Positions 2-54,447 of a stretch of 64,000 nucleotides of DNA are shown here, piece after piece. Position 1 is the stretch's first letter. Each line of letters opens with the position of its first letter. Below the pieces are notes generated by a model that searched no databases, was not told where the DNA came from, and saw only the letters and a list, made by a program, of their open reading frames with translations. The translations under genes were made by a program, and so were the position numbers. Source of the DNA: an uncultured delta proteobacterium (GTDB lineage: Bacteria; Desulfobacterota; Desulfobulbia; Desulfobulbales; BM004); contig CAWAPG010000005.1 in assembly GCA_963783905.1 (NCBI GenBank), forward strand, positions 2,820 through 66,819. The letters are read 5' to 3'.

Positions 2-847
2 GAGTTTGTGGTCGGAAATTGCCGGGAGAAGAATTCTCTGCAACAGGCTGTGCAGGATGTCGATCATGTGTTTCATCTTGCCGGTGCGACAATGGCCATC
101 AAGGAAAAAACTTTTTTCGAAGTGAATGGACAGGGTACGGAGAACCTCGTCCAGGCCTGTATCGAAAACAATACCCGTCTCAAAAAATTTATCTATATTT
201 CGAGCCAGGCAGCAGCAGGTCCGGGTCGGAGCGAAGGGAAGAAAAACGAATCCGACCCTTGCGAACCGGTTTCGCCCTATGGAAAAAGTAAATTGCTGGG
301 GGAGAAATTGGCCCTGTCCCACTCCCATGAGCTGCCTCTCCTCATCCTGCGGCCCTGTGCCGTCTATGGCCCCAGGGACAAAGGTTTTTATACTATTTTT
401 AAGTGCCTCTCCAGGGGCATTAACCCTTGTCTCTCTGGCCACGATCAACACATCAGTATGTGTTATGTTCAGGATCTTGTCCAGGCGATCCTTCTGGCTG
501 CCGAGACCCGGACAGAGAACGGGGAGATATTTTTTTTGTCTGATGGCCATGACTACCGGATGGGGGAAATTGCTGACACCTTCGCGCAGGCGATGGAGAT
601 AAGGGCGCTGAAGCTCCGACTCCCTAAACAGATGCTGTTCAGCCTGGGCTTTCTGGCGGAAGGTTTCGCCAGACTCACCGGCAAGCCTTCCATCATGAGC
701 AGAGGCAAGGTCGAGGAAATGATCTGTAAGAATTGGCTCTGCGACATTACCAAGGCCAGGGCGGTATTGGGTTTCGAGCCCCGGATTTCTCTAGCTCAGG
801 GAGCGGAATTAACCGTTGCCTGGTACAAAAAAGAAAATTGGCTTTAG
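2..847 (+). CDS. NAD-dependent epimerase/dehydratase-family (extended SDR) reductase; 5' end lies upstream of the window
   Basis: The frame is open from the window edge (codons at 2, 5, 8...). The N-terminal Rossmann GxxGxxG is absent, so roughly 50 codons are missing. Catalytic YxxxK is present (SPYGKSKLLGE), along with HLAG and RPCAVYGPRD motifs typical of the fold. The gene ends 40 nt before the next gene. Confidence 0.75.
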   Translation, partial: EFVVGNCREKNSLQQAVQDVDHVFHLAGATMAIKEKTFFEVNGQGTENLVQACIENNTRLKKFIYISSQAAAGPGRSEGKKNESDPCEPVSPYGKSKLLGEKLALSHSHELPLLILRPCAVYGPRDKGFYTIFKCLSRGINPCLSGHDQHISMCYVQDLVQAILLAAETRTENGEIFFLSDGHDYRMGEIADTFAQAMEIRALKLRLPKQMLFSLGFLAEGFARLTGKPSIMSRGKVEEMICKNWLCDITKARAVLGFEPRISLAQGAELTVAWYKKENWL

Positions 848-887: not shown

Positions 888-2009
888 ATGGCCGGCATTG
901 AAATCATTACTGTGGAAAGCAGATCGGAGCTTGGGGACTTCATTGACCTGCCGTGGAAAATTTATGCTGATTACCCCCATTGGGTTCCCCCCCTGAAGAA
1001 AGATGTTCGACATTTGCTGGATCCCCTCACCCACCCTTTCTGGGAGTTTTCCGAGCGGATCCTCTTTCTGGCCCGGCGTGGCTCGGAGACAGTGGGGAGG
1101 ATCGCGGGCATCATCGATCGCCGTCATAACGAGTTCCACGTTGAACAGATGGGCATTTGGGGATTCTTCGAATGCGTCGACGATCCGGAGGCCGCGGCAG
1201 CCCTGTTCTCTTCCGTGGAAACGTGGGTTCGCCGGAAGGGGATGACCTTCGTGCGAGGCCCGCTCAATCCCTCCATCAATTACGAGGCGGGCTTGCTCAT
1301 CGACGGGTTTGAGTATCCGCCTGCCTTGATGATGACGTACAATCCGCCTTACTACCTGAGGTTAGTCGAATCGTGCGGCTTCACCAAGGAAAAGGACCTC
1401 TTTTCATTCATGATCGAAGGTGATTACCACCTTCCCGAGTGGATGGATAGTCTTGCTGCACGGTTGGCCCGGAAAAAAACCATCCGCATCAGGCCCTTTC
1501 GGCTCAAGGAACCGGTCCCTGAACTAGCTCTGGTCAGGGAGATATTCAACGACTGCTGGTCCGGCAACTGGGGTTACGTCCCCTTGAGCGATCATGAGAT
1601 ACGGGAGATAGGAAAAGACCTGGTGAAAATCGCGGATCAGGACCTGGCTTTTTTCATCTATTATGAGGATGAACCCGCGGGGGTCTGCGTGATCCTGCCC
1701 GACATCAACCCGTTGCTCAAGCGTCTCAACGGGCGCATCGGCCTGCCGGGTTTGCTGAAGTTTCTCATATATCGGCGGGAGATTACCGGATTGCGGGGAA
1801 TGCTCTTCGGTGTCAAGGAGAAGTACAGGCAACTGGGACTCCCCATTCTGGCTTTCAGTCACGTGTATGAGGCTGTAAGGAAGAAGGGAAATTACCGTTA
1901 TCTGGAGATGGGCTGGACCCTGGAGGACAACGAGTCGATCAACTACCTGGTCGAGGAAGCCGGCGCTAGAATACACAAAAAATACAGTTTGCTGAGAAAA
2001 TCGTTATGA
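888..2009 (+). CDS. GNAT-like N-acyltransferase-fold protein (373 aa), candidate lipid N-acyltransferase
   Basis: Intact ORF starting at ATG 888. The C-terminal part carries an acyl-CoA N-acyltransferase-like motif A (KYRQLGLPILAF) followed by EMGWTLEDNESIN...GARIHKKY. Family assignment is by eye only. Confidence 0.5.
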   Translation: MAGIEIITVESRSELGDFIDLPWKIYADYPHWVPPLKKDVRHLLDPLTHPFWEFSERILFLARRGSETVGRIAGIIDRRHNEFHVEQMGIWGFFECVDDPEAAAALFSSVETWVRRKGMTFVRGPLNPSINYEAGLLIDGFEYPPALMMTYNPPYYLRLVESCGFTKEKDLFSFMIEGDYHLPEWMDSLAARLARKKTIRIRPFRLKEPVPELALVREIFNDCWSGNWGYVPLSDHEIREIGKDLVKIADQDLAFFIYYEDEPAGVCVILPDINPLLKRLNGRIGLPGLLKFLIYRREITGLRGMLFGVKEKYRQLGLPILAFSHVYEAVRKKGNYRYLEMGWTLEDNESINYLVEEAGARIHKKYSLLRKSL

Positions 2010-2045: not shown

Positions 2046-5000
2046 ATGGACATGTCGGCTGAACATCGGATTCCAATCATAGCTTTCGTCTGGCGGCCTG
2101 AAGAGATGTGCCTGCCTGTGACCCAAATGGCGCAACGAACCGGGACCAGGGCCATCTTCGATTGTTCCATGCTGAAGGCGGAAGCACTCCGTTCTGTCTT
2201 GCGAAAAACCGGCGGTGCCTGCCCCGTCCGTGATATTAAGATTTCCGCCCCTGCCTTGATGGAACCGTCTCTGGAGCAGTTACTGCAAGAAGCAGGGGTC
2301 CAAAACATCTGGGTCGAATGCCCCAACCGGTTATTCCAGGGGACTTTTTCCGTCTTTCTCCAGAGATTGCGGCAATTGTCGCAAGTCTATTGTTGCTTTC
2401 CAATCCTCGGAGACTTGCATTTTGCGGCAACGATATTGACCGATAACTATGGCATCGGCCGCGTTGTCCTGAAAGGATGCGAGGCATCCGGATTTGTTAG
2501 CGGCGAGACGACCCTGGCGTTTTATGCAGCGGTCAAGGAGATGCTGTCCAACTCACCGCAATCAGTGGACATCCTCATCTGGGGTTCTATCTCCACCCCT
2601 GAGGCGGCAGCGGCATTGCTATGCACCGGGGCCACGGGGATCGTCTTCGAGAGTCTCCATTGGCTGACCGACCTAGTTGCCGTTGATGATGATCAGCGCC
2701 TACGACTCTCCAACCTCCGCCTGGATTCGACCGATCTGGTCGGCCTCGACTTGCAGGTCCCCTGTCGCCTTTTCAACAAGGGCAACTCGACCGCGTTCAA
2801 GGAACTCAAACAGTTCGAAAGTTCGCTGTGCGGAGCAACGATCACGGAGGAAAACCGTCGTTCCTTCGCAGACCGGGTGCGTACCGGGGCCGTCCACCCT
2901 CTTGCAAGCAGCTTCAGCCCGGACGAGGTCATCCCTCTTGGTGTGGAGACCGCCTTTGCTGCGTCCTTTGCCGAACGTTTCGGGACGAAGACCGAGGTAG
3001 CTGTCCAGTCCTTCATGGATGAGACTCGCAGCCTGTGCCGCCTGGCTGAGGTAAAAAAGGATTTCTTTCTGGACAGCCCTGTAGCCGCAGAGATGGGAGT
3101 CACATATCCCTTTATCCAGGGGGCCATGTCCTGGATCTCTGATGTCCCGGAGTTTGCCGCAAGGATTGCCGAGGCCGGTGGACTGCCTACCATTGCCCTT
3201 GGCCTCATGGACGCTCAGGCCCTTGATCAGAGGCTGGGACGCCTGCCGGAGATTATGGCAGGACGCCCTTATGCAGTGAATATCATCTCTCTGGCAGAGA
3301 ATCCTTGCAGGGAGACCCAACTGGCTTGGATAAAGAAACACCCGCCCCGTTTTGTAGTGATCGCAGGCGGTGATCTCTCGCCTTTAAAGGAATTGCTGGA
3401 ATGCGGCCTGGAGGTCATATATATCGCCCCTGATGAGGCCCTGTTGCAGCTCGCCCTTAAAGCCGGCGTCCGCTACTTGATCTGCGAGGGGTATGAGGCC
3501 GGCGGGCACGTGGGGCGCCACAGCACCCTTACCCTGGCGCAAAGGGTGTTGGATCTGAAACGACAAAAACCAGGCCTGTTTCAAAAGTGTCGCATTATTC
3601 TTGCCGGGGGAATCTGCAATCGGGAGACCGCATTCATAGCCGCTATGCTCGGAGCGGATGGTATCCAGATGGGCACCGCGTATCTGGCCACCCGGGAGAT
3701 CGTTGAAACGGACGCCCTGACCGCGCTCTATCAGCACATGATCCTGGAATCGGTTCCGGGCGGAACGGTCGTTTCAGGCCAGGCCACCGGGCTTCGGGTA
3801 CGATCCTTGCGGACCCCGAGAACGGAGGCGGTTTTATCCCTGGAGAGGGAGTTTGCCGCGGGGCACCAGGACGAGCACTCCTTTCGCATGAAAATAGAAG
3901 AAATGACGGCCGGGAGCCTCTTTGCCGCGGCCCACGGCATGAACAGACCTGGCGGGGCGCCTCTCGATGAGTCGGCCTGCCGGGAACGCGGCCAATTCAT
4001 GAGCGGGGCCTGCGCCGGCCTCATCAGTAATGTCCTGGATCTGCCGACCTTCCATCGCGAACTGGCCGTAGGTCCTCTTTTGTTGCATCAGCCATTTGAA
4101 GAGGCAGCCATCGAAAAAATAACGGCAGCTTCATCTGAACCTTCGCACCCCATAAAAACCACATCCCCCGTGTCTGGCCATGGACTGAAGCAGAGAACGG
4201 TGTATAGAGCTGCCCATGAAAGGGTTGCCATCACCGGCATGAGTATTCTCAATACCTTGGGAAAAAGTCCGGATGAGATCTGGACTGCCAGCCTGGCCAT
4301 GAAAAGCGGGATTACCCTGGTCCCGTCTTCCCGGTGGGATCACGAGCGTTTTTATGACCCCCGCCCGTTCGTCCCGGACAAGACTTACTGCAAGGTGGGC
4401 GCCTTCCTGGACTTTCGGATCTCACGCAATGAACTCGGGATCCCCCCCCATGATTTCCGGACCATGACCGAATCCACCAAGACCACCATGTGGCTGGCGG
4501 AAAAAGCTATCCGGGCATCCGGCATCCTGGAGTCAGACATTCCGCGGGAACGAATCGGGGTCCTCATTTCCCAGAATTCGGGAGAAGCGGCGGAGCCCCT
4601 GACCGATTTGATCATAAGGGGATACGTGCATGACATCCTCGCCTGCATCAGAAAGGCCGTTCATCTCACACCGGATCAGTTGAGTGCCATCGAAAGCGAG
4701 GTGAAGTCCGGACGCACGCCCCCGGACGATACTACCCTCCTGGGCAGACTCAACTCCGCAGCGGGCGGCTTTATCTGCAACCGGTACGGGTTCATGGGCC
4801 CCAGTCATTCTGTCTCCGCAGCCTGCGCCACCTCACTGGTTGCACTATACAGCGCTTTCCAGATGATCCAAAACGGCATCATCGATGCAGCCATCGTCGG
4901 CGGGGGCGAAGAGCATCTCACCCACCTTCATTTTGTGGAATTCTCCGCCCTGGGCGCTCTTTACGGGTTGTCAGGACAGGAAAGGCCCGCTCACGAGACC

Positions 5001-8000
5001 TCCCGCCCCTTTGATGCCGAACGAGACGGGATGGTTCTGGGTGAAGGCGGGGGCATGATCGTCATTGAGCGGGAAAGTTTGGCCCGGGAAAGAGGGGCGC
5101 CTGTCCACGCCGTCATCACGGGCATGGGAGCAAGCAACAACCATCTGGGCATGGTAGAGTCTTCCAGTGTCAGCCAGGAGCTCGCCATCCGCGCCTCTTT
5201 CAAAGAGACACCCTATGGGCCTGATGCGGTTGACCTGGTGGAATGCCATGCCACCAGCACCCGGCAAGGCGACGGACAGGAGGTCCAAGCCCTGCGGTCC
5301 TTCTTCAATTCCTCCAAGCGCACAGTCCTTACCTCGCTCAAGTCCCAGATCGGACATACCCTTGGCGCCTCGGGTATCAACAGCCTCATTCGAGGAGTTA
5401 TGTCCATGAAAGCCGGGGTTTTCCCCCCTACACTCAATTATATAAATCCAGACCCGGAAATAGGCCTGGAAGGATCAGGGTTCTTCGTCGCCCCCGAGCC
5501 GTTTGACTGGCAGTGTGGAGCGGGCCGGTTAAGAAGGCTTCAGGTCAACTCTTTCGGGTTTGGAGGTTCCAACTATGTGGTGCAGTTGGAGCAGGCCAGG
5601 GATGAAGAAGCTGCGATCCTGGTATTGCCGGGCGGTGCGCCCGGTCTCGCCCGGGAGCAAGCTGCCGGCACCTCGGATTTACATGAAGAGCCGAATTCCG
5701 CAGGAGATGCAAGTTGTGGGCCTCCTGAGCTTCAGGGCGTCTCTTTCTTCCGGACAGAGGTCGAAGGCCTCCACTGCCGGATGGCCGTTGTGGCGCCATC
5801 CGAAGAGGAGGCGCTCACGGTCATCGAGAGGTCGGCCTCCATTATCAAATCGGGATTTGTCTCACCCAAGGCATTGAGGTCCCTGGCGCAGCAGGGAATT
5901 TTTATTGGCCGCGAGGATCTGCCGGTGCGGCCGCTCGCCTTGGTATTTCCCGGACAGGGATCACAGTATAACGGAATGGGACGGGAACTCTATGAGTCTT
6001 TTTCCGTGATCAGAGAGTGGATGGATAGGGCTGCAGATGCAGCAGAATTTGATCTCCTTCACCTGATGTTTCACGACCAAGAGGAAAATCTTGCAAAAAC
6101 CCGGTGGCAGCAACCGGCCATGTTTGCCATGGAACATGCCATGGCCCGATACCTCATGACCCTTGGTATCCATCCAGTGGCCATGGCCGGCCACAGCCTG
6201 GGCGAGTTGACCGCTTTGTGCCTGGCCGGTGTCTATTCCCCGGAAGACGGGTTTCGCATCGTGAACAAGCGGGCCCTCTGCATGGACAAGGCCGCCGGCA
6301 TGCACGTGGACCCCGGCGTCATGGCGGCCGTGGACGTCCCCCCGGATCTGCTGCAAGAGATGATCAAGGGACGGAACGATGTCCATATCGGCAATATCAA
6401 TGCACCGAACCAGATCGTCCTGAGCGGCAGCACCAAGGCGGTCAAGGATATGTGCAAGAAAATCAAGGAGATGGGATGCCGGGCCACCCTCCTGCGGGTC
6501 AGCATGGCCTTCCATTCTCCTATCATGAAGGTCATCCATGATGAGCTCGAGGCGTACATTGCCTCCATTCCATTTCATTCTCCACAGATACCCGTCATCT
6601 CCAACAAGACCATGGCGCCGTATCCAGCAGATCCCAATGAGATCAGGCGCATCCTGATGGCCCACCTGGAATCTACCGTCCATTGGATGAATAATGTCCA
6701 GACCCTTAGCAATGACTATGGAGTCGGGCTCTTCGTGGAGGTGGGCCCCGGCGATGTCTTAAGCAATCTCATCGCCGACACGCTTCCTGAATCGATATGT
6801 ATCCAGACGTCCATTCCTGCTGAAGAGGGTTCTACCTACAGGACCGCCCTGGCGCAGCTCTTTGTGCAAGGGTCTCTGCAGGTTGCAGGAGAACCGAGGC
6901 TTGTTTCCCTGCCTCCATTCAGGAAGGCTGCCGAATCTCACCCTGTGGCCCCAGCACCAGGATCGCGATCGTCAAAACCCGGGATGGTGGGCGTTAACCC
7001 GGTGGAAAGAATCATTCAAAGGGAAATCAACCGATTCGTGATGGAGACCTTCGGCCGCTTTCTCAAGCCCAACATCCTGGAAGCCATCCGCCAGGAACTT
7101 GATCCGACATTCCAGGAGGGCGAGCTCTCATCCCTTATCAATTCCATGCTCGGGGATTCCGGGCTTCTCGAAGACCGGGGGCTGGACTCTTCCGGCAAAT
7201 CGGCATCCCCGCCTCTTGCTCGTACCCCTGCGGTTCCGCAATCGGCCTCACCTCCCCTCGGTGAAACGTCTGCATTCCAAACAGCAGGTACCAGCCTGCA
7301 GCCGGCCACCAAGTCTGTTACTCACGGCCCAGTGGGGGATGGGGCCTCGGATTCCAAGTGGAATGAGGGCCAAGATATTACAGAGAGGCTCATTCACATC
7401 ATCATGGATGCGACAGGATTCAACCGGGACGAAATCCAGCCCGATATGGATCTGAGGCGCGACCTCTCCATCCGCTCCAGCCGTCTGCCCATCATCATGG
7501 ATGCCGCGGAACAGCAATTCGGCATCACCATCGAACTGGAGGATTTTATCGGCGTCCGTACCGTGCGGGAAATTGCTGAGAAGATTTCCGATCTGGTCGC
7601 CGGGAATGAAGGTCCCACCCCTTCAACCGCCAAGGCGGTTCAAGCCGGCACTCCAGTCGCGGAGGGACAGGCCGTCCCTGCCCTTGCCGGGTCGCCCCAG
7701 CATCAGGACCGACCAGGACCATATAGAAACGCTTATTCAAATCATCATGGATGCGACAGGATTCAACCGGGACGAAATCCAACCCGATATGGATCTGAGG
7801 CGCGATCTCTCCATCCGCTCCAGCCGCCTGCCCATCATCATGGATGCCGCGGAACAGCAATTCGGCATCACCATCGAACTGGAGGATTTTATAGGCCTCC
7901 GCACGGTGAGGGAAATTGCTGATAAAATTTCCGATATAGTCGCCGCAAAAACAGGTGCCGGCCTGCCATCGGCCGACAAGGCGGCTGACCCCGGCCCGTG

Positions 8001-8145
8001 CGGCAATGAAACCCTGGAGCCCTCGGAGGAGGCGAGTTTAAAGCGGCTCGTATTCCATTGTGTTCCGGCGGAATTGTCGGCATCGGCGCCGATAGAATTA
8101 GGCCAAGGCGAGGCAGTGGCTCTTGCTCTCACCGGACAGGAATGA
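2046..8145 (+). CDS. Iterative type I PKS/FAS-like subunit: degenerate ER-like domain, NPD/PfaD-type enoyl reductase, KS, AT, ACP, ACP (one internal frame change)
   Basis: ORFs 2046..7922 and 7501..8145 are joined by a frame change at about 7700-7720. ER motifs: YPFIQGAMSWISD (~3100) and EGYEAGGHVG (~3490). KS motifs: VAITGMS (~4220), active-site Cys in SVSAACATSL (codon 4824-4826), ECHATST, GHTLGASG. AT motifs: FPGQGSQY (~5945) and GHSLGE (Ser codon 6195-6197). Two ACP units have putative Ser codons at 7476-7478 and 7819-7821. A GGAGGG RBS precedes ATG 2046, and the stop overlaps the next ATG (ATGA at 8142-8145). Confidence 0.85.
7384..7943 (+). repeat. Tandem direct repeat encoding the two ACP domains (period 343 nt)
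   Basis: 7398-7600 and 7741-7943 align without gaps, with about 12 mismatches in 203 nt (hand count). The encoded peptides are IIMDATGFNRDEIQPDMDLRRDLSIRSSRLPIIMDAAEQQFGITIELEDFIG(V/L)RTVREIA. Confidence 0.9.
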
Positions 8146-9519
8146 CGATATTGCCCAAAATGTCCGGAGAGATATTCCGGCAGGATTACGGGGTTGACAC
8201 CTTCCCACTGCTCTTCATGCCGGCGAAAGGTACCGGACAGGAAGGGTATGATATTTTGACGGATGAAGGGTCTCGCCAGGTATCGGAGAAAATAGCGGGT
8301 TTAACAGCCCTGGCCGGGATGGTTATCACCTTGCCGCAAGGCTGGTCGGGAAAATTAAGAAGCATGGAGGATGTTTCGCGGCTTTTGAGGGGACTCTTTT
8401 TACCTTTGCAGACATTTCTGCAATCACCGGCCAAGAAATTCGTGGTGCTTATTCATTGCAGAGATGATGCCGAAACTCGCGGTCGGCTGCTGGCGGAGGG
8501 GATGCTCGGAATGTTCCTGAGCGCAGCGCAGGAGTATACATCGGTCCAGTTTCGCACCCTGGAAATCGACAAGAAAACCGACCTTCGCGCTGCCTTACGC
8601 GATGCTTTGGACAGAGGATACCCGATGGTGGAGATGATTCATCGTGAGGGCAGGGTTTTTACCTCGGAGGGGCACGTCGCCCCGTTGCTCTGCAGGGATC
8701 TGTCACGTCTTGATCTGAGCCCTGGAGACGTTGTCGTCATGTCCGGGGGCGCAACCGGGATCGGCGCCCACCTGGCCCGCAGTCTGGCGCCCTTTAAGCC
8801 CCGCCTGGTCTTTCTGGGGAGGACGCCTCTCGATCCAGGCATGAATACCGTGAACTCCCTGTTCCACGCATCCGCCTTCGGAGTCTTCCGCTCCCGCGGA
8901 CAGGGCCCTGGAGATTACCCGGACCCTGGCGGATCTGCACGCCGCAGGGATCGAGGCAACGTATCATACCTGCGATGTCGCTGACCCCGAGGCGGTCCGT
9001 GCCGTCATGGACGAGGTGGCGAATCGTTATGGCAAGATCCGTGGGATCATCCATGGCGCCGGGGTCCTCAGGGACGGTTTCCTCAGCCAGATGACCCCGG
9101 ATGATTTCTCCATGGTCACGGACATCAAATTCCTCGGGGCGTGGAATCTCTTCCTGGCTGCCGAGAAGGCCGAGTTGAGGTTTTTCGTGGGCCTTTCCTC
9201 GGTGGCAGCGATCCAGGGGAATCCCGGCCAAACCAACTACGCGGCAGCCAACCGGATGATGTCGGCCTTGATCAGAACCCTCCGGCAGAAAAATGGTGCC
9301 ATCCGGTTCAAGGCCTTGATGCTTCCTCCGATCGAAGGGGCAGGCATGGCCGAGGATCCGGATATGCGGGAGCTGATGAGGAGAAAGGGCGTATCGTACA
9401 TCCATGTCAATGAGCTGGCAGGGCTTTTCTGCCGGGAACTGTTCGTTTCCCCGGACGACGATTGGGTGCTGTTCATGAGGACACTCCCCGCTGTGAAGAC
9501 GGCACGGCTCATGACATGA
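8142..9519 (+). CDS. Free-standing PKS ketoreductase (KR) subunit (one internal frame change)
   Basis: ATG 8142 overlaps the upstream stop (ATGA). Rossmann motif VVVMSGGATGIGAHLARSL lies at ~8735-8790. The frame changes between 8852 and 8905, then continues as ALEITRTLADLHAAGIEATYHTCDVADPEAV...IIHGAGV...SSVAAIQGNPGQTNYAAAN (KR Ser/Tyr/Asn set, ~9190-9260). Stop 9517-9519 overlaps the next ATG. Confidence 0.75.
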
Positions 9520-10500
9520 CCCGTCCTCTGCCCTATGGAGAATTGGATGGAGGCACCGCGGCCTTCAGTCCCGGGGACTTTCCCATGATCGAGGGGATCT
9601 CTAGCCTGGACATCCGGCGGGAACAACTCGAGGCTTTCAGATCCTTCTCCCGGGAAAAGGATCTTTGGATCGAGGATCACAGACCCTTGACGTTCGTCAA
9701 GCATCCCCTGGTCTCAGCCGCCATGTTTCTGGAGACATTCATGGAAGCGGCCCGGATACTGTATCCTTACCTGCAGGTGCGGGGAGTTCGCCAGGTGCGG
9801 TTCATGGACATGATCCAATGTCCGCCCGGGGTTCCGCGGCCTTCCAGGATCTCCTGCCGTCGAGTCGGTACCAATCTTCCGGAGGTATGTGTGCGAGGTC
9901 TCTCTTGCGGCACAGGAGATCTCTCCGACCGGGAGATTGACCGACCGCTTCTCCCCGCACTGTCAGGGCCAGGTGATCCTTGCCGGCGGGGATGGCGGAG
10001 ACGGATATCTCGGGGAGGGGTTTCCGGATTTTCCTGTCCGGCCCGACGAACTGCGGACCAGTGCCCATGGATCAGAAAAGGTACTGCAATGGTACAAGGA
10101 CCACAGCGGCCTTACCGGCAGGTATCGCGTGCTGGAGTCCCTTGACGGTGCAGGTCCGGGAGTGGTGCGGGGACAAACCATATACCGGCAGACAGGTGAT
10201 TTCGCAAATCTGGCCAACGCGCAGTACCAATACTCTCCCTACCTTTTCGAAGCCCTTTTGCAGTTGGCCGGCTTCTACTGCATGGCCATGAAGATGCCGG
10301 AGCAACGATCCCTGATTCCCATGGAGATCGGGGAAATGTGGTTTTGCCGAAAATGCCGGGAGGGGGAGCGGATCACCCTGGAGGCCCGCATGCGGGCAGA
10401 GAACGAGCAAGGCCTCAGCTGGGACGCCAGAGGAGTTGACGAACAGGGTCGCACCATCATGCAGGTTGCCGATATGCGGATGCAATGGGTTTCAGAATGA
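9516..10500 (+). CDS. Free-standing PKS dehydratase (hot-dog DH) subunit (one internal frame change)
   Basis: ATG 9516 sits in an ATGA overlap. DH signature LWIEDHRPLTFVKHPLVSAAMFLE is present (His codon 9678-9680), and the C-terminal half reads YSPYLFEALLQLAGFYCM. The frame changes at about 9886-9893 inside a tgtgtg run. Stop is at 10498-10500. Confidence 0.65.
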
Positions 10501-11289
10501 ATAATGTCGATGGTTGGAGATGTCTTTCTATCTCACCCGATGAACGATTACCAGAGAGTGGATGTGGCGAAGAATATGCCAAAATATAACCGTCCATGCC
10601 GTGAGTTTTGATCGGCAAGGGGGGCAGGCATTCTATGCCTCCTTGCCGGGCCGATGCCGAAACCTGCAAACAGTACCGGGCCAACGGGGCAGGAGACAGG
10701 AATCATCTGGCCTCCGTCCTCCTGGACCACGTTGCGGCGATGGAAAATCCCTCTCTGGAAAAGCCGGCTTTCCTTCGATAAAGCGGCTTTCCCGATTCAC
10801 GTGGTCCACGGCCCGCTCGGCCGGCCCCATCTCCTCTTGGGAGAATATCGGGTCCCGGCCATCTCCTTCAGCGAGGGTGGCGGGAGAGTCTGGGCCGCTC
10901 TTTGCGGGGATGAGTCCGATATCGGCATTGATGTGGCAGCGGCCGATGAATTCCAGGGAGAATATCCCTTGCACCGAGTTTTTCATGACCAGGAGCTGCA
11001 GCATGCATTGAGGTTGACAGGCGGAGATCGGGAAAAAGCAGCAGCCCTGCTCTGGTCCATCAAGGAAGCGGTGGTCAAGGCCCTGGGATGCGCGTTCCAC
11101 CTGGTGGCGCCCCGACAAGTCCTTGTCTATCCAGCCCTGAGCGGAAACGGGGGGTATACTTTTCCAGTGGGCTTATCAAGGCAGGCCCTGGTGCGGTCTC
11201 CCTCCGCTGCCGGCAGCTCCATCCGGGTGCGTTCGTTTCCCCGGGAAAAGTTGTGGCTTTCCATCGCCTTTTTGAAGGTCAATTCATGA
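10497..11289 (+). CDS. Sfp-type 4'-phosphopantetheinyl transferase; N-terminal ~100 codons cannot be read in one frame
   Basis: The C-terminal two thirds (ORF 10654..11289) carry GPLGRPHL...ISFSEGGG...IGIDV and WSIKEAVVKALG (PPTase motifs). An ATGA-coupled ATG at 10497 gives MNNVDGWRCLSISPDERLPE (typical W...LSPDE start) but stops at 10587. All three frames contain stops between 10497 and 10780. Stop 11287-11289 overlaps the next ATG. Confidence 0.7.
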
Positions 11290-12239
11290 CAAAAGAAGCT
11301 GAATACGCCATCGAAGTCGAAAAACTGACGAAGCGCTACGGGGATTTGGAGGCGGTTAATGACATTTCGTTCAATGTCAGGCAAGGCGAGGTTTTCGCCT
11401 TGCTGGGCCCCAACGGAGCCGGTAAGACCACTACCGTCGAGATAATCGAAACCACCCGCAGGCCAACCTCGGGGATCGTTCGTCTGCTCGGGATGGACGT
11501 CACAAAGGAAAAGCGCAACATCGTCCCCCGCATCGGGGTCCTGCCCCAGGGGTTCAGCTCGTTTGACCGGATAACGGTCAGGGAGACCTTGCAGTATTAC
11601 TCGCGGCTCTTCAGTAGCAGAAACGCCGATATCGACGGGCTGATAGAGCTCGTGAAGCTCACGGATAAGGCCCGGGAGCAGTACATGAGCCTCTCCGGGG
11701 GGTTAAAGCAGCGACTCGGAATCGCCATTGCCCTGGTCAACGACCCCGAGGTGGTGTTTCTCGACGAGCCGACCACCGGACTCGACCCGCGCGCCAGGCA
11801 CGAGGTGTGGGATGTCCTGGTGGGCCTGAAAAAGCAGGGAAAGACGGTATTTCTCACCACGCACTACATGGAGGAAGCCGAGCTGCTGGCAGACACGGTA
11901 GCCATTATCTCCAAGGGCAGGATAATCGCCATGGACTCTCCCGAGCATCTCATGGCAAGCAATGCGGATTACCTGATCCTCACGCTCCAGGGCGTTGATG
12001 AAAAAGCTTTTGAGGTCGTTGGGAAGATGGGCTTTGATCCGCAACTTAGCAACCACAAGAACATTACGGTGAGGATCAATCGCATGGACGACATCCGCAA
12101 TATATTGAACGCCATGGACGATGCCGGGGCGCCGGTGCTCAGCATGGACGTTCGCAAGCCCAACCTCGAACAGGTTTTCCTGAAGCTCACCGGCGAGGCG
12201 CTCCACGAAGGCGCCGCCGAGGAAAAGGGGGCAGTATGA
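11286..12239 (+). CDS. ABC transporter ATP-binding protein
   Basis: Walker A GPNGAGKTTT, signature LSGGLKQRL, Walker B VVFLDEPTTGLD. ATG 11286 overlaps the PPTase stop (ATGA), and the stop overlaps the permease ATG at 12236. Confidence 0.9.
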   Translation: MTKEAEYAIEVEKLTKRYGDLEAVNDISFNVRQGEVFALLGPNGAGKTTTVEIIETTRRPTSGIVRLLGMDVTKEKRNIVPRIGVLPQGFSSFDRITVRETLQYYSRLFSSRNADIDGLIELVKLTDKAREQYMSLSGGLKQRLGIAIALVNDPEVVFLDEPTTGLDPRARHEVWDVLVGLKKQGKTVFLTTHYMEEAELLADTVAIISKGRIIAMDSPEHLMASNADYLILTLQGVDEKAFEVVGKMGFDPQLSNHKNITVRINRMDDIRNILNAMDDAGAPVLSMDVRKPNLEQVFLKLTGEALHEGAAEEKGAV

Positions 12240-13352
12240 ATTTGCGCGTTGTTGCCGCAAGTCTGGTCATAAGCTTCAAGAGCTTTTACCGCGAAAAGAC
12301 CACCATGTTCTTTACCTTGACCTTCCCGATCATGCTGATCCTGGTGTTCGGCACCATTTTCATGGATGACGACAAGATCAACTTCAACCTGTGCGTGCAG
12401 GACCTCGATCAAACCGCCACCTCGGCGGAGATCTCCCAGGCCCTTGACTATACCGGCAAGCTCCAGATAACCCAGGTTGATCCGGCCATCGACGCCACCC
12501 AGTACGCCAAGGACAACCAGGTCAACCTTGTCCTCGTGATTCCCAAAGGCTACGAAGAAGCTTACGGACGAATATCTGCAATCAGACTATCCCAGCGCCT
12601 TCGTTACCTTCACGTATATCTACGACCCCAGCTCAGTCTCGGTGGTTGATAAGATGCAGATCCTGGAGATGGTGTTTGCCAGGCTGAACCAGGGGCTGAC
12701 CGCAATGCCGCCGTTCATCAGGACGAAGACCGTATCGATACACACCCGGAAATACCGGTTCATCGAGTTCTTCATCCCCGGCATCATCGCCATGATGGTC
12801 ATGACCGAGAGCATGTTCGGCACGGTGAACGTGAATACGGAGCTGCGGCAGAAAGGCATCATCAGGAAGCTGGCCACCACCCCCATCACCCGTACCGACT
12901 GGATCGTGTCGAACATTCTGTACCAGTTCATGCTCGCGGTCATCGCCACCACGGCCATGCTGCTGGTGGGCTATGGTGTGTTTGACGTCAAATTGCAGAT
13001 AAACGCCTGGCTGCCGTTGTTCATTGTGCTTGACGTCTTCATGTTCGTCGGCATCGGCATGCTGCTCACCCGCGTCGTGCGGGAGGCGCAGAGCGCCGCC
13101 GCCGCCGCCAACGCCGTTGCCTTTCCGATGATGTTTCTCTCCGGCAGTTTCTTTCCCCTGGAGATGATGCCGCGCTTCCTGCAGACCTTCGCCAAAGTGC
13201 TGCCTCTGTACTATGTCAACGAGGGCCTCCGGGCCTCCATGGTGTTTCACGACAACATGGCCTCCCTGCGTTACGCCGCTATCTTAGGAGCTCTCGCTAC
13301 CGCGGTCTTCATCGTGGGCATAACGGCCACTCGATGGGAGGAGAGCAAGTAA
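12236..13352 (+). CDS. ABC-2 type transporter permease (one internal frame change)
   Basis: ORFs 12236..12649 and 12642..13352 are joined by an indel near 12565-12570 (KGYEEAYG then EYLQSDYPSAFVTFTYIYDPSSVSVVDKMQ in the next frame). The protein has an N-terminal TM helix, a periplasmic loop, and a C-terminal multi-TM ABC-2 domain (FFIPGIIAMMVM..., AFPMMFLSGSFFPLEMMP). Confidence 0.8.
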
Positions 13353-13603: not shown

Positions 13604-14605
13604 CTACCGCCGGCGCACCCAATCGCAGCTGAGGCAGGTCGGAAACCCGCGATAGTCGAGCTTGCCGAAGTTCCTCCTGATTGCGGCCAACGTCGGCCCA
13701 TTCCAGATTTCCCTTAGACTCTGGGAATTCACATCTCCTACGCCCTGAACGCCATTGTAATCTACGCAACAGGTAACGGCCCTGCCGTTGCAGAGCACCG
13801 ACAGGGCTGACCAGGGGTAAAAACAGACAGACACAATCCTTTTTCCCAGAACGTTGTACGACTTCCCGCCGCCAAAGTTGTCCAAAGAGCTGATATTCAT
13901 GCAGTCGCCGCTATTTTTATCCGGCAGAGAACGGTACAGAGCTTGAAACTCCTCGCTTCTGGCCCCATTGGCTTCCTGGGGCAGGTATTGCAGGATCAGC
14001 TTCGGGGTCTTTTCCCCCAGTTCCTTCCTTATTCTCATAAAGTCTTTGATGTTTTGCAGCGTCACCTTGAAATCCAGCCTTCTCATGGTGGCGTTATATG
14101 ATTGTTCATCGGTGCCGTAAAAACTGATCTTCATCCTATCCAATCCCGCATGAATGATCTTTCTCGATGTCTCGGGGAACAGTAACGATCCATTGGTCAC
14201 GATATAGGTATGCTTTATCCCGCAGGCCTTGGCGAGCGCGATTCTTTCAGGCAATAATGGATCCAGAAGCGGTTCGCCGAACCCGTGCAGATGGACGACG
14301 GGTTTTCGGCGCGCACTGGAGAGTTCTGCCATGATCTTTTCGAATAAGCCAAACTCCATGAAGCCGTGTTTTCGGGTCAGCGTGTCGCGAGGGCACATAA
14401 CACACTGCGCGTTGCAGCAGTTGGTATTCTCGATCAGTAGCACCGAGGGCAAGGGGAGGTGGTGTCGGTAATATGGATAATAAAGCAGGGGGGTCCGGGC
14501 CAATGACGTCAACAGGCACTTTGTTATCTTGTCCCGGATGTTCAGAATCATGTTGCCTGCTTCGTTTAGTCGTAACCGTTCGGGGAAAATGCAACTCTTT
14601 CTCAT
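13604..14605 (-). CDS. Radical SAM enzyme with C-terminal SPASM/twitch-like Cys-rich domain
   Basis: CxxxCxxC cluster motif CNAQCVMCP lies at ~14400-14430 on the minus strand, followed by GFGEPLLDP. The C-terminal Cys-rich stretch is CFYPWSALSVLCNGRAVTCCVDYNG...FPTCLSCDW. The gene starts 20 nt downstream of the FAAL-ACP-AOS stop. An alternative start is at 14551. Confidence 0.8.
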   Translation of the reverse strand: MRKSCIFPERLRLNEAGNMILNIRDKITKCLLTSLARTPLLYYPYYRHHLPLPSVLLIENTNCCNAQCVMCPRDTLTRKHGFMEFGLFEKIMAELSSARRKPVVHLHGFGEPLLDPLLPERIALAKACGIKHTYIVTNGSLLFPETSRKIIHAGLDRMKISFYGTDEQSYNATMRRLDFKVTLQNIKDFMRIRKELGEKTPKLILQYLPQEANGARSEEFQALYRSLPDKNSGDCMNISSLDNFGGGKSYNVLGKRIVSVCFYPWSALSVLCNGRAVTCCVDYNGVQGVGDVNSQSLREIWNGPTLAAIRRNFGKLDYRGFPTCLSCDWVRRR

Positions 14606-14625: not shown

Positions 14626-17600
14626 TTAGTCATGCTGCAAGGCTTCCAGCTCCGCAACGACAACATCCAGGGTAAAACGAATCTGTTCGGGCGTATGGGT
14701 GCAGTTGACAAAAAAGCGCAGCCGGGCAAAGTTGTCAGGAACTGCCGGATAGACCATGGGCAAGACATCGATCCCCTGCTGGGAGAGGGATTGCGAGAGT
14801 CTTGTCGCCTTCAGGGAATCTCCCACGATCAACGGAATTATAGCGGAATCGCAACTGCCGGCGCCGGTATTGAGACCCCTTTCCCGAGCCAGCAGATGAA
14901 AAAGCCCGGCGAGTTCATGGAGGTGCGTCACCCGCTGCGGCTCCTTCCGCAACAAGCGAATGGCGGCCAGGGCTGATGCGACATTCGGCGGCGATATGCC
15001 CACGCTGTAGACGAAGCCCGGCGCCGTGTATTTCAGGTATTCGATGAGGGCCCGGGAGCCGGCGATGTAACCTCCGCAACTGGCAAAGGATTTGCTCAAG
15101 GTGCCCATCCAAAGTTCCACATCGGCGGGATTGACACCAAAGTGCTCGCCAATCCCCCTGCCTCTTTTCCCCAATGCCCCGATGGAATGGGCCTCGTCCA
15201 CCATGAGAAGGGCACCGTACCGTTTCTTTATCTTGATAAACTCCGGAAGTTCAGGGATATCACCATCCATACTGTAAAGGCCTTCGATAACCACGAGGGC
15301 CCGTCGGAAACGGGGTCGCGACTCCTTGAGAATCGTGTCCAGGGCTCGCCAGTTGTTGTGCGGAAAAGAAAGAGACGTTGCCTGGGAGAGCCGGCATCCC
15401 TGGAGAACACTGTTGTGGATCAGGGCATCATGAATGATGAGGTCGGATTTGCCGAAAAGATGGCCGATAGTGGTCACGTTGGTGGCATGGCCGCTCACAA
15501 ATACCAGGCTGTCCTCGGTACCAATCAAATCGGCGATTTCTTGCTCAAGCTCCCGATGCAGGGGCCTTTCGCCTGAGGCAATACGGCTTGCCGAAACGGA
15601 CGTGCCGTAGCGGTCGATGGCGTCTTTGGCGGCTTGCGATACGACCGGATCTCCGGACATACCCAGGTAATTGTACCTGGAAAATGAAATGAACTCTCGA
15701 CCTGCGGCAATGGCGCAATTGAAGTCGACCCCTTCGTGCACCCGGAAGTAAGGATTGTCGATACCCCGCGCCTTCATTCCCTGGATGATCCGCTGCAGAT
15801 TCCGGTATTCGGGGTAGTCCGCAAACGGCAGGTACTCCGGTTGTATCTTAGGGGCCTTGCCATGGACGTCAGCCTTTTCCGCCGGCTCTCCGGATTGACG
15901 GCCGGATGAAAGCAGCTTTCCCAAAGGTCCGTCTTTGGCTTCAAGTCCTCTTCCCGACGTCCTTTGCCAGAGAACATGCGCTGTCAGGTCGGAAATACCA
16001 GCCCCCAGAAAGAGCGCCTCAAAGGGAAACTCGATTCCCATCTCTTCTTCAATGTCCGTCTTCATCTCCATTGCCATCAAAGAATCAATGCCCATCATAT
16101 TCAGGGGACAGTGCACATCCACCCTGGAGAACGGGATCTTCAGGAGGTCCGCCACCTTTTTGGTAATATAATGCTCAATGGCACGGAAGAACTCCGACGT
16201 ATCTTTTGTCTCCATGTCATCCGATTCCAACAAGTCGAGCTTAAGTGCACGGCCATCCGGAAGGCTTGCAGCCGACGTGTCCGTTCTCATGTGGCCCGGT
16301 TTCCATTCGTCCCATGCCTCGTCGCGGGGTATCCTCGGCTCAACTTCCCAGGAAGGGACCGGACACTTGGCAACAACCTGCAAGTTGCCCTGGATGAAAT
16401 GTTCCCGACAAAGGCGACGTTGGACCTTGCCACTGGTCGTTTTGGGAAGACTTGCGGTCTTGATGAGCGCCACCGCGTAAACCCCGATTCCATGCTCTCT
16501 TGATACACTTTGGCAAATGGATTTGACCACCGCCACTGCGTCAAGTTTTCTGAGGTGTAGTCGCTCGATCTCCTGCACCACCACCAACCGTTCATCACCC
16601 CCGACTTCAACGGCGAACGCCACCCCGCAGCCTGGCCGCAAGGCCTCATGGCTTCTCTCCACGGTCCCCTCAATGTCTTGCGGATAGTAATTGAGGCCCC
16701 GGATGATAATGAGGTCCTTCAGACGACCGGTGACAATGAGCTGGCCGGCATGGATGAACCCGAGGTCTCCCGTACGCAGAAAGGGACCTTCTCCCGTATC
16801 AGCAAGCCTTGCCCGGAAGGTCTGCTCCGAATCTTCGGGCCGATTCCAATATCCTTGGGCAACACTTGGTCCAGAGATCCATATTTCTCCGATCTTATCG
16901 CGCTCGCAGAGAGTTTGCGTCTCCGGGTCGACGATCACAATCTCATGGCCCGGCAACACTTCCCCGGTTCCAACCAGCTCGAAATCGTGCTCGCTGTCTT
17001 CTGCCGCCAGGGAAAAGCGGCCGGCTATCAACGCCTGCGCGTCCACCTGCAGGAATGTCGGTTTGGCGCTTTTGTCGCATCCGGTGGCGATAAGGGTCAT
17101 TTCCGAGAGACCATAACAGGGCAGAAATGCTTTTTGCCGAAAGCCGCAGGGTTCGAACGCCGCGGTAAAGCGCTGGAGCGTCTCCCACCTGACCGGCTCG
17201 GCACCGTTAAAAGCGACATCCCAACTGCTCAGATCAAGCTCTGACTTCTGCTCCGGCGTGATCTTTTGCACACAAAGATCGTAGGCGAAATTCGGCCCGC
17301 CGCTGCTCGTGCCCTTATAGCGTGAGATGGCCATAAGCCAGCGGAGCGGTTTTTGGATGAAATGCACTGGCGATATCAGGATCGCATCTCCACCTGCGTA
17401 AAGGGGCTGGATGATCCCACCGACCAACCCCATGTCGTGGTAAGGCGGCAGCCAGATTATGCCGCGCATACTCGATGAATGCCCAAAAACTGTTTGGATG
17501 GCGGCTGAATTATGGAGGATGTTTCCATGGCTGACCATTATGCCCTTGGGATTTCCCGTGGAACCGGAGGTGTATTGGAAGACAGCGGAGGAATCAGCAC

Positions 17601-18141
17601 CTAGGGGGGGTTCCTGCCAACCATCTGCCAGGTCGTCGGCAATGGTGTCGGTTGCTATCCAGTTGAGGGTCGCCAGCCCGGGAGTCTGACCTATTTGGTG
17701 TCCGTACTTCTCCAGGGTTGAGGCGGTGGAGAGAGCCGCTGCTGGTTCTGCGTCGGCTGCCGTTGCGGCGAGGCTGGCCAGGAACCGGTTGGAATACGGG
17801 AGATTGACCGGCACGGCGACCATGCCCGCACACAGGCACCCGAAGAATGCCGCGGGAAACTCGATGCCCGTAGGGTAAAGCAAAAGGACTCTTTCCCCCG
17901 GAGAGAAACGAGATTGAAGATGTGCGGCAATGGCAAGCGCCCTCTGTTCCAGCTCACAATATGTCAGTCCGGTTTCTTGTGATTCTCCATCGTTGAGATA
18001 GGTGTAGATGGTTTTCTCTCCATGGACTTGAGCCCTTCGGCGCAGCAGGTGGATCAGGTTCGTAACTCCTGGCGTGCAACTCCTGGGGACCGGGGAGAAG
18101 TGAGCCGTATGGCTTGAATCGTCTTCCAGACTATTATACAT
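14626..18141 (-). CDS. Tri-domain fusion: fatty acyl-AMP ligase (FAAL) - ACP - PLP-dependent alpha-oxoamine synthase (Spt/BioF/Kbl family)
   Basis: Intact 1171-aa ORF. FAAL motifs are FQYTSGSTGNPKGIMVSHGNILHN, YGLSE, TGDLGF and PKTTSGKVQR. The ACP motif is MGIDSLMAMEM (Ser codon 16081-16083). The AOS domain has YNYLGMS, SGHATN, DEAHSIG and the PLP-lysine in GTLSKSFASCGGY (Lys codon 15091-15093). Confidence 0.85.
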   Translation of the reverse strand: MYNSLEDDSSHTAHFSPVPRSCTPGVTNLIHLLRRRAQVHGEKTIYTYLNDGESQETGLTYCELEQRALAIAAHLQSRFSPGERVLLLYPTGIEFPAAFFGCLCAGMVAVPVNLPYSNRFLASLAATAADAEPAAALSTASTLEKYGHQIGQTPGLATLNWIATDTIADDLADGWQEPPLGADSSAVFQYTSGSTGNPKGIMVSHGNILHNSAAIQTVFGHSSSMRGIIWLPPYHDMGLVGGIIQPLYAGGDAILISPVHFIQKPLRWLMAISRYKGTSSGGPNFAYDLCVQKITPEQKSELDLSSWDVAFNGAEPVRWETLQRFTAAFEPCGFRQKAFLPCYGLSEMTLIATGCDKSAKPTFLQVDAQALIAGRFSLAAEDSEHDFELVGTGEVLPGHEIVIVDPETQTLCERDKIGEIWISGPSVAQGYWNRPEDSEQTFRARLADTGEGPFLRTGDLGFIHAGQLIVTGRLKDLIIIRGLNYYPQDIEGTVERSHEALRPGCGVAFAVEVGGDERLVVVQEIERLHLRKLDAVAVVKSICQSVSREHGIGVYAVALIKTASLPKTTSGKVQRRLCREHFIQGNLQVVAKCPVPSWEVEPRIPRDEAWDEWKPGHMRTDTSAASLPDGRALKLDLLESDDMETKDTSEFFRAIEHYITKKVADLLKIPFSRVDVHCPLNMMGIDSLMAMEMKTDIEEEMGIEFPFEALFLGAGISDLTAHVLWQRTSGRGLEAKDGPLGKLLSSGRQSGEPAEKADVHGKAPKIQPEYLPFADYPEYRNLQRIIQGMKARGIDNPYFRVHEGVDFNCAIAAGREFISFSRYNYLGMSGDPVVSQAAKDAIDRYGTSVSASRIASGERPLHRELEQEIADLIGTEDSLVFVSGHATNVTTIGHLFGKSDLIIHDALIHNSVLQGCRLSQATSLSFPHNNWRALDTILKESRPRFRRALVVIEGLYSMDGDIPELPEFIKIKKRYGALLMVDEAHSIGALGKRGRGIGEHFGVNPADVELWMGTLSKSFASCGGYIAGSRALIEYLKYTAPGFVYSVGISPPNVASALAAIRLLRKEPQRVTHLHELAGLFHLLARERGLNTGAGSCDSAIIPLIVGDSLKATRLSQSLSQQGIDVLPMVYPAVPDNFARLRFFVNCTHTPEQIRFTLDVVVAELEALQHD

Positions 18142-19885: not shown

Positions 19886-20330
19886 GTGTGCCACGAACGC
19901 ACCAAAGGGTTTTATACCCCCAAGCGCGGTGCTGTACAAGAGATGAGGGCAGGTTTCTCGAAGCCGTCATACAGGTAGAGGCTTCAAACTACCTTAAGCT
20001 GCGCTGGTAAAGAGCCAGGGTGGTGAGTGTTAAGGAAAAGGCCTCGCAGGACGGGGTCAGGTAGGATTCAAGGAGGCGAGCGCAAGCGAACCACTGATGA
20101 GGTGTCGAAAAGTTAAAGATGACGTCAAAACCGAAGGCTTGTGGTACTCCGGGATAAGTTCAGGGGAGACCTGTTTACTGCCTGGGCGGCGTCCGGCATA
20201 AAGGTGGCGCGACCTTGAAACAGGCTCTTGTATGGAACGTGAGAACCTGTCGTTCCGATGATAACGGGAGACTGTCACGTTTGGAACTGTGAGAGCCAGG
20301 GGGTGAGATTCCCCCAGCTACTCGACTCGA
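19886..20330. ncRNA. Candidate large structured RNA (class unknown; strand not established)
   Basis: A GC-balanced block inside AT-rich spacer, with stops in all six frames. It has many nested complementary segments (coordinates are in the findings), including a three-way junction at 20170-20224 and a G5/C5 hairpin at 20299-20315. Confidence 0.3.
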
Positions 20331-40092: not shown

Positions 40093-40168
40093 GCTGGCGT
40101 AGCTCAATTGGCAGAGCAGCTGATTTGTAATCAGCAGGTTGCGGGTTCAAGTCCCATCGCCAGCTCCA
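40093..40168 (+). tRNA. tRNA-Thr (anticodon UGU), CCA encoded
   Basis: GCTGGCGTAGCTCAATTGGCAGAGCAGCTGATTTGTAATCAGCAGGTTGCGGGTTCAAGTCCCATCGCCAGCTCCA, with anticodon loop TTTGTAA. Confidence 0.93.
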
Positions 40169-40238
40169 GACGAGTAGTCGCAAGTGTCGACCCGGGAAGC
40201 TGTTCATGAGAGTGGGGCGGTATCTGCGAAGGTGAAAT

Positions 40239-40323
40239 GGAGGGGTTCCCGAGCGGTCAAAGGGAACAGACTGTAAATCTGTCGGCGACGCCTTCGGAGG
40301 TTCGAATCCTCCCCCCTCCACCA
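40239..40323 (+). tRNA. tRNA-Tyr (anticodon GUA), CCA encoded
   Basis: Acceptor GGAGGGG pairs with CCCCTCC. The anticodon loop is CTGTAAA, a long variable arm is present, and the T-arm is GGAGGTTCGAATCCTCC. Confidence 0.93.
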
Positions 40324-40463
40324 TAGATCATGTGCGGGACCGGTTGGTTCAGCGCGTTATTTTATTCTGGTTCTGGCGACTCAGTTTATGGATATATTAA
40401 GGATATATATGGTATGGCGGAAACGGTCATTAAAATCCATCAATTCCTAACCGACTGATTGAA

Positions 40464-40539
40464 GCGGGAATAGCTCAATTGGTAGAGCATCAGCCTTCCA
40501 AGCTGAGGGTTGCGGGTTCGAGACCCGTTTCCCGCTCCA
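40464..40539 (+). tRNA. tRNA-Gly (anticodon UCC), CCA encoded
   Basis: Acceptor GCGGGAA pairs with TTCCCGC. The anticodon loop is CTTCCAA, and the T-arm is GCGGGTTCGAGACCCGT. Confidence 0.93.
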
Positions 40540-40617
40540 ATTAATTCTCTGGAATGCATCTGTCCGCCGCACTAAAGAGAATTCAGGCTTATGCCGAGAG
40601 GGGAGGAGGGCTTTTAA

Positions 40618-40693
<76 letters not shown>

Positions 40694-50368: not shown

Positions 50369-54447
<4,079 letters not shown>

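Follow-up and report, generated by a model that had tools for sequence, protein, structure and literature searches.

The closest described relatives of the gene analyzed here are secondary lipid synthases that contain a PfaA-like multidomain protein. In PfaA (NCBIfam TIGR02813), a ketosynthase (KS) is followed by an acyltransferase (AT), tandem acyl carrier protein (ACP) domains, a ketoreductase (KR), and a polyketide synthase (PKS)-type dehydratase (DH), and a dedicated Sfp-type (PfaE-like) phosphopantetheinyl transferase (PPTase) adjoins. Fused pfaDA secondary lipid synthases, in which the enoyl reductase (ER) is named as a pfaD homologue, are known from Ottowia thiooxydans, Aquimarina, Flavobacterium, and Renibacterium type M, and these clusters keep a pfaBC homologue (PMC13291983). 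Type J of the catalogue of Shulse and Allen (2011), from Planctomyces limnophilus, consists of pfaD (ER) followed by pfaA (KS-MAT-ACP3-KR, where MAT is a malonyl acyltransferase) (PMC3098273). Here we examine a related locus in 64,000 nucleotides (nt) of DNA from an uncultured delta proteobacterium (assembly GCA_963783905.1, contig CAWAPG010000005.1, positions 2,820 to 66,819 of the forward strand), referred to below as the window. A first-pass annotation of this window had read six overlapping open reading frames (ORFs) at positions 2046 to 10500 (2046..7922, 7501..8145, 8058..8984, 9007..9519, 9462..10145, and 9889..10500, all of which are exact) as an iterative type I PKS or fatty acid synthase (FAS) made of three subunits. 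We conclude, with a probability of about 0.8, that 2046 to 10500 is one gene for a self-contained, single-polypeptide iterative type I FAS/PKS-like megasynthase, whose frame has been broken six times, most probably by assembly consensus errors.

By sequence profiles, the domain order of the megasynthase is a degenerate ER copy (psiER), a FabK-type, putative flavin mononucleotide (FMN) ER, KS, malonyl-type AT, ACP, ACP, KR, and PKS-type DH (Table 1). The order from KS to DH is the same as in PfaA, and the adjoining Sfp-type PPTase is also alike. In contrast to PfaA, there are only two ACPs, and two FabK-like domains are fused N-terminally. PfaA was the second-best NCBIfam match of the orthologue P0003, but at 436.1 bits it was far below the cut-off of 1,010.1. 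An ER fused to the N terminus of a PfaA-like multidomain protein is shared with the pfaDA synthases; however, the ER here is of the FabK type, an extra degenerate copy precedes it, and there is no pfaBC. No PfaB, PfaC (second KS/chain length factor, FabA-type DH), or PfaD partner was found within ±10 kb in any related locus. The best NCBIfam family for the ER domain was FabK (TIGR03151), with 136.5 bits and thus below the cut-off of 453.1, while the match to PfaD (TIGR02814) reached 30.8 bits against a cut-off of 449. Filing the gene as a PfaD-PfaA fusion was therefore rejected. As to the catalogued secondary-lipid cluster types, with which the first-pass annotation had proposed a comparison, type J has the closest layout, since it is likewise a minimal set, made of an ER and a PfaA-like protein, and has no PfaC. 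However, type J comprises two genes and no DH is listed for it, whereas here one gene includes a DH. Type S of Desulfobacterium autotrophicum may be the real counterpart, but its domain order is absent from the text of Shulse and Allen (PMC3098273).

The continuity of the gene is evident from its orthologues. A search with the first ORF gave 120 best homologues with 66 to 81% identity, 116 of which were proteins of 2,265 to 2,834 amino acids (aa) that unite NMO, KS, AT, PP-binding, and KR domains in one polypeptide, nearly all of them with PS-DH as well. The typical size is ~2,600 to 2,800 aa, with all domains in one chain (more than 100 orthologues). Four orthologues compared with the window by tblastn were colinear from 2058 to 10497, crossing every frame change, and an uninterrupted frame of 2,569 to 2,739 codons was present in 18 related genomic loci, mostly from Desulfobacterota metagenome-assembled genomes (MAGs) plus Syntrophorhabdales and Aminicenantes. 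There is no evidence of a natural split, because the four short homologues were the window's own ORF and three proteins from fragmented assemblies (P0009, P0012, and P0115). As natural split variants, P0009 and P0012 were rejected because they share 90% clusters with members of 2,662 to 2,701 aa, and P0012 and P0115 because the remainder of the protein continues on the contig in overlapping, shifted ORFs. Fragmented copies elsewhere (contig_N-style and MFD assemblies) break at positions other than those of the window.

We located the frame breaks by aligning the DNA of 7900 to 10500 with ten orthologous loci, and the first frame change with six. Three breaks, at 7704 to 7713, ~8856, and ~9889, had already been placed roughly well as internal indels by the first-pass annotation. 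At 8142 and 9516, which it had taken for gene boundaries with a 4-nt ATGA stop/start overlap, the orthologues were uninterrupted, and the alignment gave two +1 insertions, at ~8119 and at ~8162, as well as the loss of 1 nt at ~9511. Judged from the alignments, these six breaks are what produces the six overlapping ORFs. For the first of them, the 10-nt near-duplication CAGGACCGAC is our best guess, its position being uncertain in a variable linker; removing 10 nt at 7704 to 7713 gives back ...PQHQDHIETLIQIIMD... in the translation. With the six corrections, an 8,442-nt ORF of 2,813 codons without internal stops was obtained, which aligned with the 2,775-aa orthologue P0003 in a single high-scoring segment pair (aa 5 to 2813 versus 2 to 2775, 77.7% identity). 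KR and PS-DH were both supported by a Pfam search on the frame-corrected translation. The KR match after repair covered profile positions 3 to 166 of 180 and scored 130.7 bits, compared to 92.4 bits for the fragment.

The alternative organization consists of three real subunits (ER-like-ER-KS-AT-ACP2, KR, and DH) that are coupled by ATGA at 8142 and 9516 and disturbed by only three sequencing indels. An ATGA is present at both sites, with its ATG opening the downstream frame, and genuine ATGA coupling occurs farther downstream, at 11286 and 12236. However, the homologues are continuous across 8142 and 9516, and no orthologue examined had a conserved split at a site homologous to either position, with the orthologue consensus running through both. 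Around 8142, conservation of 14 codons (LLLSPDRNDDIAQN) is seen in a third reading frame, frame 2, in which a tblastn segment of P0003 lies at 8120 to 8173 and the orthologue consensus reads ...VLLLSPDRDDxIA.... A KR protein starting at 8142 would moreover lose a conserved segment encoded from ~8038 in the other frames. At the KR-DH linker, where the orthologue consensus is ...KTAxLNDxxRPSP..., the deletion at ~9511 was found relative to all ten aligned loci. The two tetramers are ordinary coding sequence that looks like stop/start signals in shifted frames: in the true frame, the ATGA at 8142 to 8145 reads AAT|GAC (Asn-Asp), while the ATG at 9516 encodes a Met inside the protein, also present as Met in several orthologues, with the TGA at 9517 to 9519 out of frame.

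ATGA is also the commonest out-of-frame stop context in the gene. It occurs 55 times within 2046 to 10500. In the 5' part of the megasynthase gene, where the frame is intact, 31% of out-of-frame stops have this context, so two or more ATGA ends among the six frameshift-terminated frames are expected (P, ~0.6). Taken together, these results make three subunits hardly credible. The corrected sequence is a single continuous megasynthase ORF, the ATGA junctions within it are artefacts, and KR and DH are not free-standing. The earlier observation is thus partly supported, with its three-subunit interpretation refuted and its domain inventory and iterative logic kept. The ATGA tetramers themselves were found at all five positions listed earlier (8142, 9516, 10497, 11286, and 12236). 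Their recurrence downstream of the gene holds for two of three. At 11286, homologue ends and starts coincide with the tetramer, which is a genuine overlap of the PPTase stop and the ABC ATPase start; at 12236, the ATPase stop overlaps the permease start, and the same 4-nt overlap is found in loci L001, L002, L003, L016, and L032. At 10497, in contrast, only the TGA is functional. It is the true megasynthase stop (10498 to 10500), the PPTase homology begins at ~10562 to 10577 in another frame (frame 2), and the relatives have a short intergenic gap between the two genes.

The origin of the indels was assessed from the rest of the window. The rpoC gene (50381 to 54447) is split within Pfam domain Rpb1_1 and changes frame four times (from 2 to 0, 0 to 1, 1 to 2, and 2 to 1 at ~51.24, ~52.60, ~52.79, and ~52.86 kb, respectively), with canonical beta-prime motifs in each frame. 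Since rpoC is essential yet broken four times, the assembly must contain clustered indel errors. Breaks of the same sort were found in the PPTase gene next to the megasynthase (two shifts) and in the ABC-2 permease gene (one shift). In a codon-usage frame tracker, frame changes without stop/start structure appeared only in the lipid cluster and in rpoC, and the other window genes sampled were intact. Programmed ribosomal frameshifting or another form of recoding could in principle join the frames in vivo, and most of the shifts do have the same sign (+1-type insertions). However, at least six recoding sites in one gene would be unprecedented, the shift sites have no motif in common, no shift is required at these positions in the orthologues, and rpoC would need four sites of its own. 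We consider this explanation even less credible than three subunits.

Real indels would make the lipid-synthase cluster, as far as it is affected (the megasynthase gene in its 3' third, the PPTase, and the permease), a recently inactivated pseudogene cluster. Several observations weigh in this direction and against assembly errors. The indels are strongly clustered: of the 13 in the window, 9 lie between 7.7 and 12.6 kb, a 4.9-kb span of a single operon that is non-essential, and another three fall into a 260-nt stretch of rpoC. None was found in the initial 5.6 kb of the megasynthase gene, and most window genes are free of them too. Most are +1 insertions outside long homopolymers, and one resembles a 10-nt duplication more than a base-calling slip, a pattern that differs from the textbook signature of each single sequencing platform. 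Once the indels are removed, however, the affected part has no stop and no non-synonymous excess. The broken 3' part and the intact 5' part were alike both in their third-position substitution excess (1.95- to 2.35-fold versus 2.03- to 2.37-fold) and in their identity to orthologues (77 to 78% versus 74 to 81%). No sign of relaxed selection and no lesion beyond the frameshifts was found in the repaired gene, although a very recent inactivation would give the same codon pattern as a functional gene. Frame changes of an equivalent kind, four in number, are also present in the window's rpoC gene, which cannot be a pseudogene. We therefore regard real inactivation as unlikely and assembly consensus errors as the most probable origin of the six breaks.

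The domains named by the first-pass annotation (ER-like, ER, KS, AT, ACP, ACP, KR, and DH) were all correct, including the N-terminal ER-like domain. Among the raw ORFs, the Pfam search assigned NMO/ER, KS, AT, and one ACP to the first (2046 to 7922), the second ACP to 7501 to 8145, the C-terminal half of KR to 9007 to 9519, PS-DH to 9889 to 10500, and the Sfp-type PPTase to 10654 to 11289. ACP 1 and ACP 2 are carried by a 262-nt direct repeat (7370 to 7631 and 7713 to 7974, 87% identical). The first frame change sits in the linker immediately before the second repeat copy. The AT of P0003 is FabD-like by NCBIfam (235 bits). No thioesterase domain was found in the megasynthase. The catalytic motifs given in Table 1, from the EAGGH of the ER to the DH His, were all found. 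The window has a single KS, as do the related loci within ±10 kb with two exceptions: L010 has a distant KS (29% identical) on the opposite strand, and L030 is an unrelated PKS locus of an actinomycete. With one KS per locus and intact catalytic motifs, the iterative FAS-like action that had been proposed for this gene is a reasonable prediction.

The N-terminal 335 residues have no Pfam match. In a profile-profile comparison (hhalign), they were colinear with the true ER domain (E, 2.9e-4), their AlphaFold2 (AF2) model has eight beta/alpha units, and the best PDB matches of this model in Foldseek were the FabK structures 9pl0 and 2z6i (E, 7e-7). FabK is enoyl-ACP reductase II, an FMN TIM barrel; here, by comparison, the barrel is a tandem-duplicated megasynthase domain. 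Each of the 36 orthologues examined has SGF in psiER instead of GGH, with an invariant Phe (F150) where the true ER (EAGGH) has its active-site His, and psiER is for this reason probably catalytically dead. Its conservation suggests that it is a pseudo-enzyme partner of the active ER. An exhaustive search for the psiER domain yielded 182 representatives at 50% clustering, and in full-length representatives it nearly always occupies residues 2 to 340 of proteins of 2,400 to 2,700 aa. The class comprises ~180 clusters at 50% identity and is conserved across MAGs of the Desulfobacterota, Syntrophorhabdales, Aminicenantes, and Acidobacteriota.

The genes around the megasynthase are also conserved. 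The order of a short-chain dehydrogenase/reductase (SDR), a 373-aa protein, the megasynthase, the PPTase, an ABC ATPase, and an ABC-2 permease is kept in nearly all relatives whose flanks are long enough. In about half of them, a radical SAM/SPASM protein and a fusion that joins fatty acyl-AMP ligase (FAAL), ACP, and alpha-oxoamine synthase follow on the opposite strand. The SDR, whose relatives have ~326 aa, matched a 326-aa orthologue in L016 (aa 46 to 326 versus 2 to 844, 79% by tblastn), and its best NCBIfam matches were HpnA/OleD-like and below cut-off. A squalene-hopene cyclase lies at 4181 to 6304 of L016 (MFD01231 chromosome), two genes upstream of the HpnA-like SDR; among the few flanks annotated it was seen at that locus only, and the others were not searched for it. 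The 373-aa protein was found with 70 to 86% identity in 28 of 31 related loci, and L023 has a 54% match that is truncated by the end of the locus. It had no Pfam, NCBIfam, or PDB sequence match and did not resemble L033's FemAB-like protein. For the PPTase, tblastn with four orthologues gave segments in frame 2 (10577 to 10648), frame 0 (10641 to 10751), and frame 1 (10723 to 11274). The FAAL-ACP-alpha-oxoamine synthase had NCBIfam matches to FAAL and to bioF/serine palmitoyltransferase (SPT)-like families and was present in 13 related loci with 70 to 85% identity.

We infer the chemistry from the domains, because no family member has been characterized in the literature searched. The adjacent Sfp-type PPTase would convert both ACPs to the holo form, the AT would load malonyl units, and the single KS would elongate iteratively, with KR, DH, and ER fully or partly reducing every round to give a long acyl chain. 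Release or hand-over of this chain would fall to the cluster partners, namely, the 373-aa protein, the SDR, and the FAAL-ACP-alpha-oxoamine synthase, the last of which could condense an amino acid with the acyl chain. The product would then be exported by the ABC-2 transporter. Bacterial sphingolipid and amino-lipid pathways use an acyl-ACP synthetase, an ACP, a serine palmitoyltransferase, and a reductase. Here, the FAAL-ACP-alpha-oxoamine synthase together with the SDR would offer these same activities. In contrast to those pathways, the activities are fused in one protein and accompanied by an ABC-2 exporter and a dedicated type I synthase, and the alpha-oxoamine synthase part is below the SPT and BioF equivalog cut-offs. 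The presence of the FAAL-ACP-alpha-oxoamine synthase and the radical SAM/SPASM protein next to the cluster in many relatives hints at an amino-lipid product, and the acyl chain is possibly processed by partner enzymes into an amino lipid that is then exported.

Table 1. Positions in the window of the megasynthase gene, its domains and frame breaks, and the neighboring genes.
Feature	Position	Strand	Basis
SDR/3beta-HSD (hydroxysteroid dehydrogenase)/HpnA-like NAD-dependent reductase, 3' part, off left window end	2..847	+	Pfam Epimerase/3Beta_HSD/NAD_binding_4
Conserved 373-aa protein, always directly upstream of megasynthase	888..2009	+	Conservation in related loci
Megasynthase gene, 2,813 codons when repaired	2046..10500	+	Orthologue length, tblastn, repaired ORF
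psiER, degenerate FabK-like TIM barrel; GGH to SGF (KGCEASGF at 2472-2495, aa 143-150)	2046..3050	+	hhalign, AF2, Foldseek
FMN-type ER, FabK-like (GYEAGGHVG at 3489-3515)	3093..4031	+	Pfam NMO 5.7e-24
KS (Cys in SAACATS 4815-4835; His in ECHATST, IGHTLGASG)	4218..5609	+	Pfam ketoacyl-synt, Ketoacyl-synt_C, KAsynt_C_assoc
AT (GHSLGE 6189-6206; MAFHS 6501-6518)	5943..6809	+	Pfam Acyl_transf_1 1.4e-45
ACP 1	7383..7580	+	Pfam PP-binding
Frame change 1 (frame 0 to 1), inter-ACP linker; 10-nt near-duplication (CAGGACCGAC) or equivalent +1	7704..7713	+	
ACP 2	7726..7923	+	Pfam PP-binding
KR: structural subdomain from ~8038, catalytic part 8733-9291 (Pfam); GGATGIG 8745-8765; YAAAN 9235-9252	8038..9500	+	
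Two +1 insertions (~8119, ~8162) around 14-codon frame-2 stretch	8119..8162	+	Alignment, 10 loci
+1 insertion within KR domain	8856	+	DNA alignment, repaired translation
1-nt deletion (CAATGAC to CATGAC), KR-DH linker	9510..9519, ~9511	+	DNA alignment, codon map
PKS-type DH, double hotdog (HxxxTxxxxP variant 9669-9707)	9579..10497	+	Pfam PS-DH; all orthologues end at 10497
+1 insertion (GTAT[G]TGTGC) within DH domain	9889	+	DNA alignment
Sfp-type PPTase, two +1 insertions (~10652, ~10747), starts 61 nt past megasynthase stop	10562..11289	+	tblastn, DNA alignment, Pfam ACPS
ABC transporter ATPase	11286..12239	+	Pfam ABC_tran; L001 orthologue aa 1-316 vs 11286-12233, 84%
ABC-2 permease, +1 insertion ~12570	12236..13352	+	Pfam ABC2_membrane halves in two frames, tblastn, DNA alignment
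Radical SAM/SPASM protein, in about half of related clusters	13604..14605	-	Pfam Radical_SAM, SPASM
FAAL-ACP-alpha-oxoamine synthase (BioF/SPT-like) fusion, convergent, directly downstream	14626..18141	-	Pfam AMP-binding, PP-binding, Aminotran_1_2

Other features of the window lie beyond the cluster. A fragment of a group II intron (D1-D4-2) was found at 19945 to 20062 on the plus strand (Rfam, 93 bits), within a low-GC (~0.39), apparently non-coding region from 18.2 to 20.4 kb in which no reverse-transcriptase ORF was visible. Two copies of tuf (EF-Tu), at 40776 to 41966 and 57931 to 59121, share 99.7% DNA identity; the first lies after a tRNA cluster (Thr-Tyr-Gly-Thr, 40093 to 40693), the second after fusA. 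The gene at 36345 to 38612 encodes a flavoprotein that is HdrA-like and has an MvhD/FlpD domain, which fits an anaerobic, sulfate-reducer-like host.

A three-subunit synthase, if true, would have added a new subunit organization to type I FAS/PKS, but the split is an artefact. Chains of overlapping ORFs and ATGA "junctions" in the megasynthase genes of error-prone assemblies need to be checked against orthologues before an architecture is inferred from them, and the broken rpoC is a warning about the quality of the present assembly. The gene is a further, badly assembled member of a family of secondary-lipid-type synthases that is uncharacterized but well populated in databases. In its intact form, this family is widespread among anaerobic bacteria, where it is annotated only generically. 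We suggest, as a tentative and rather doubtful proposal, that it forms an undescribed architectural class of self-sufficient FAS-like synthases, in which a tandem pseudo-FabK/FabK pair is joined to a PfaA-like core, and that the cluster might serve anaerobes to make and export a sphingoid-like lipid or an amino lipid.

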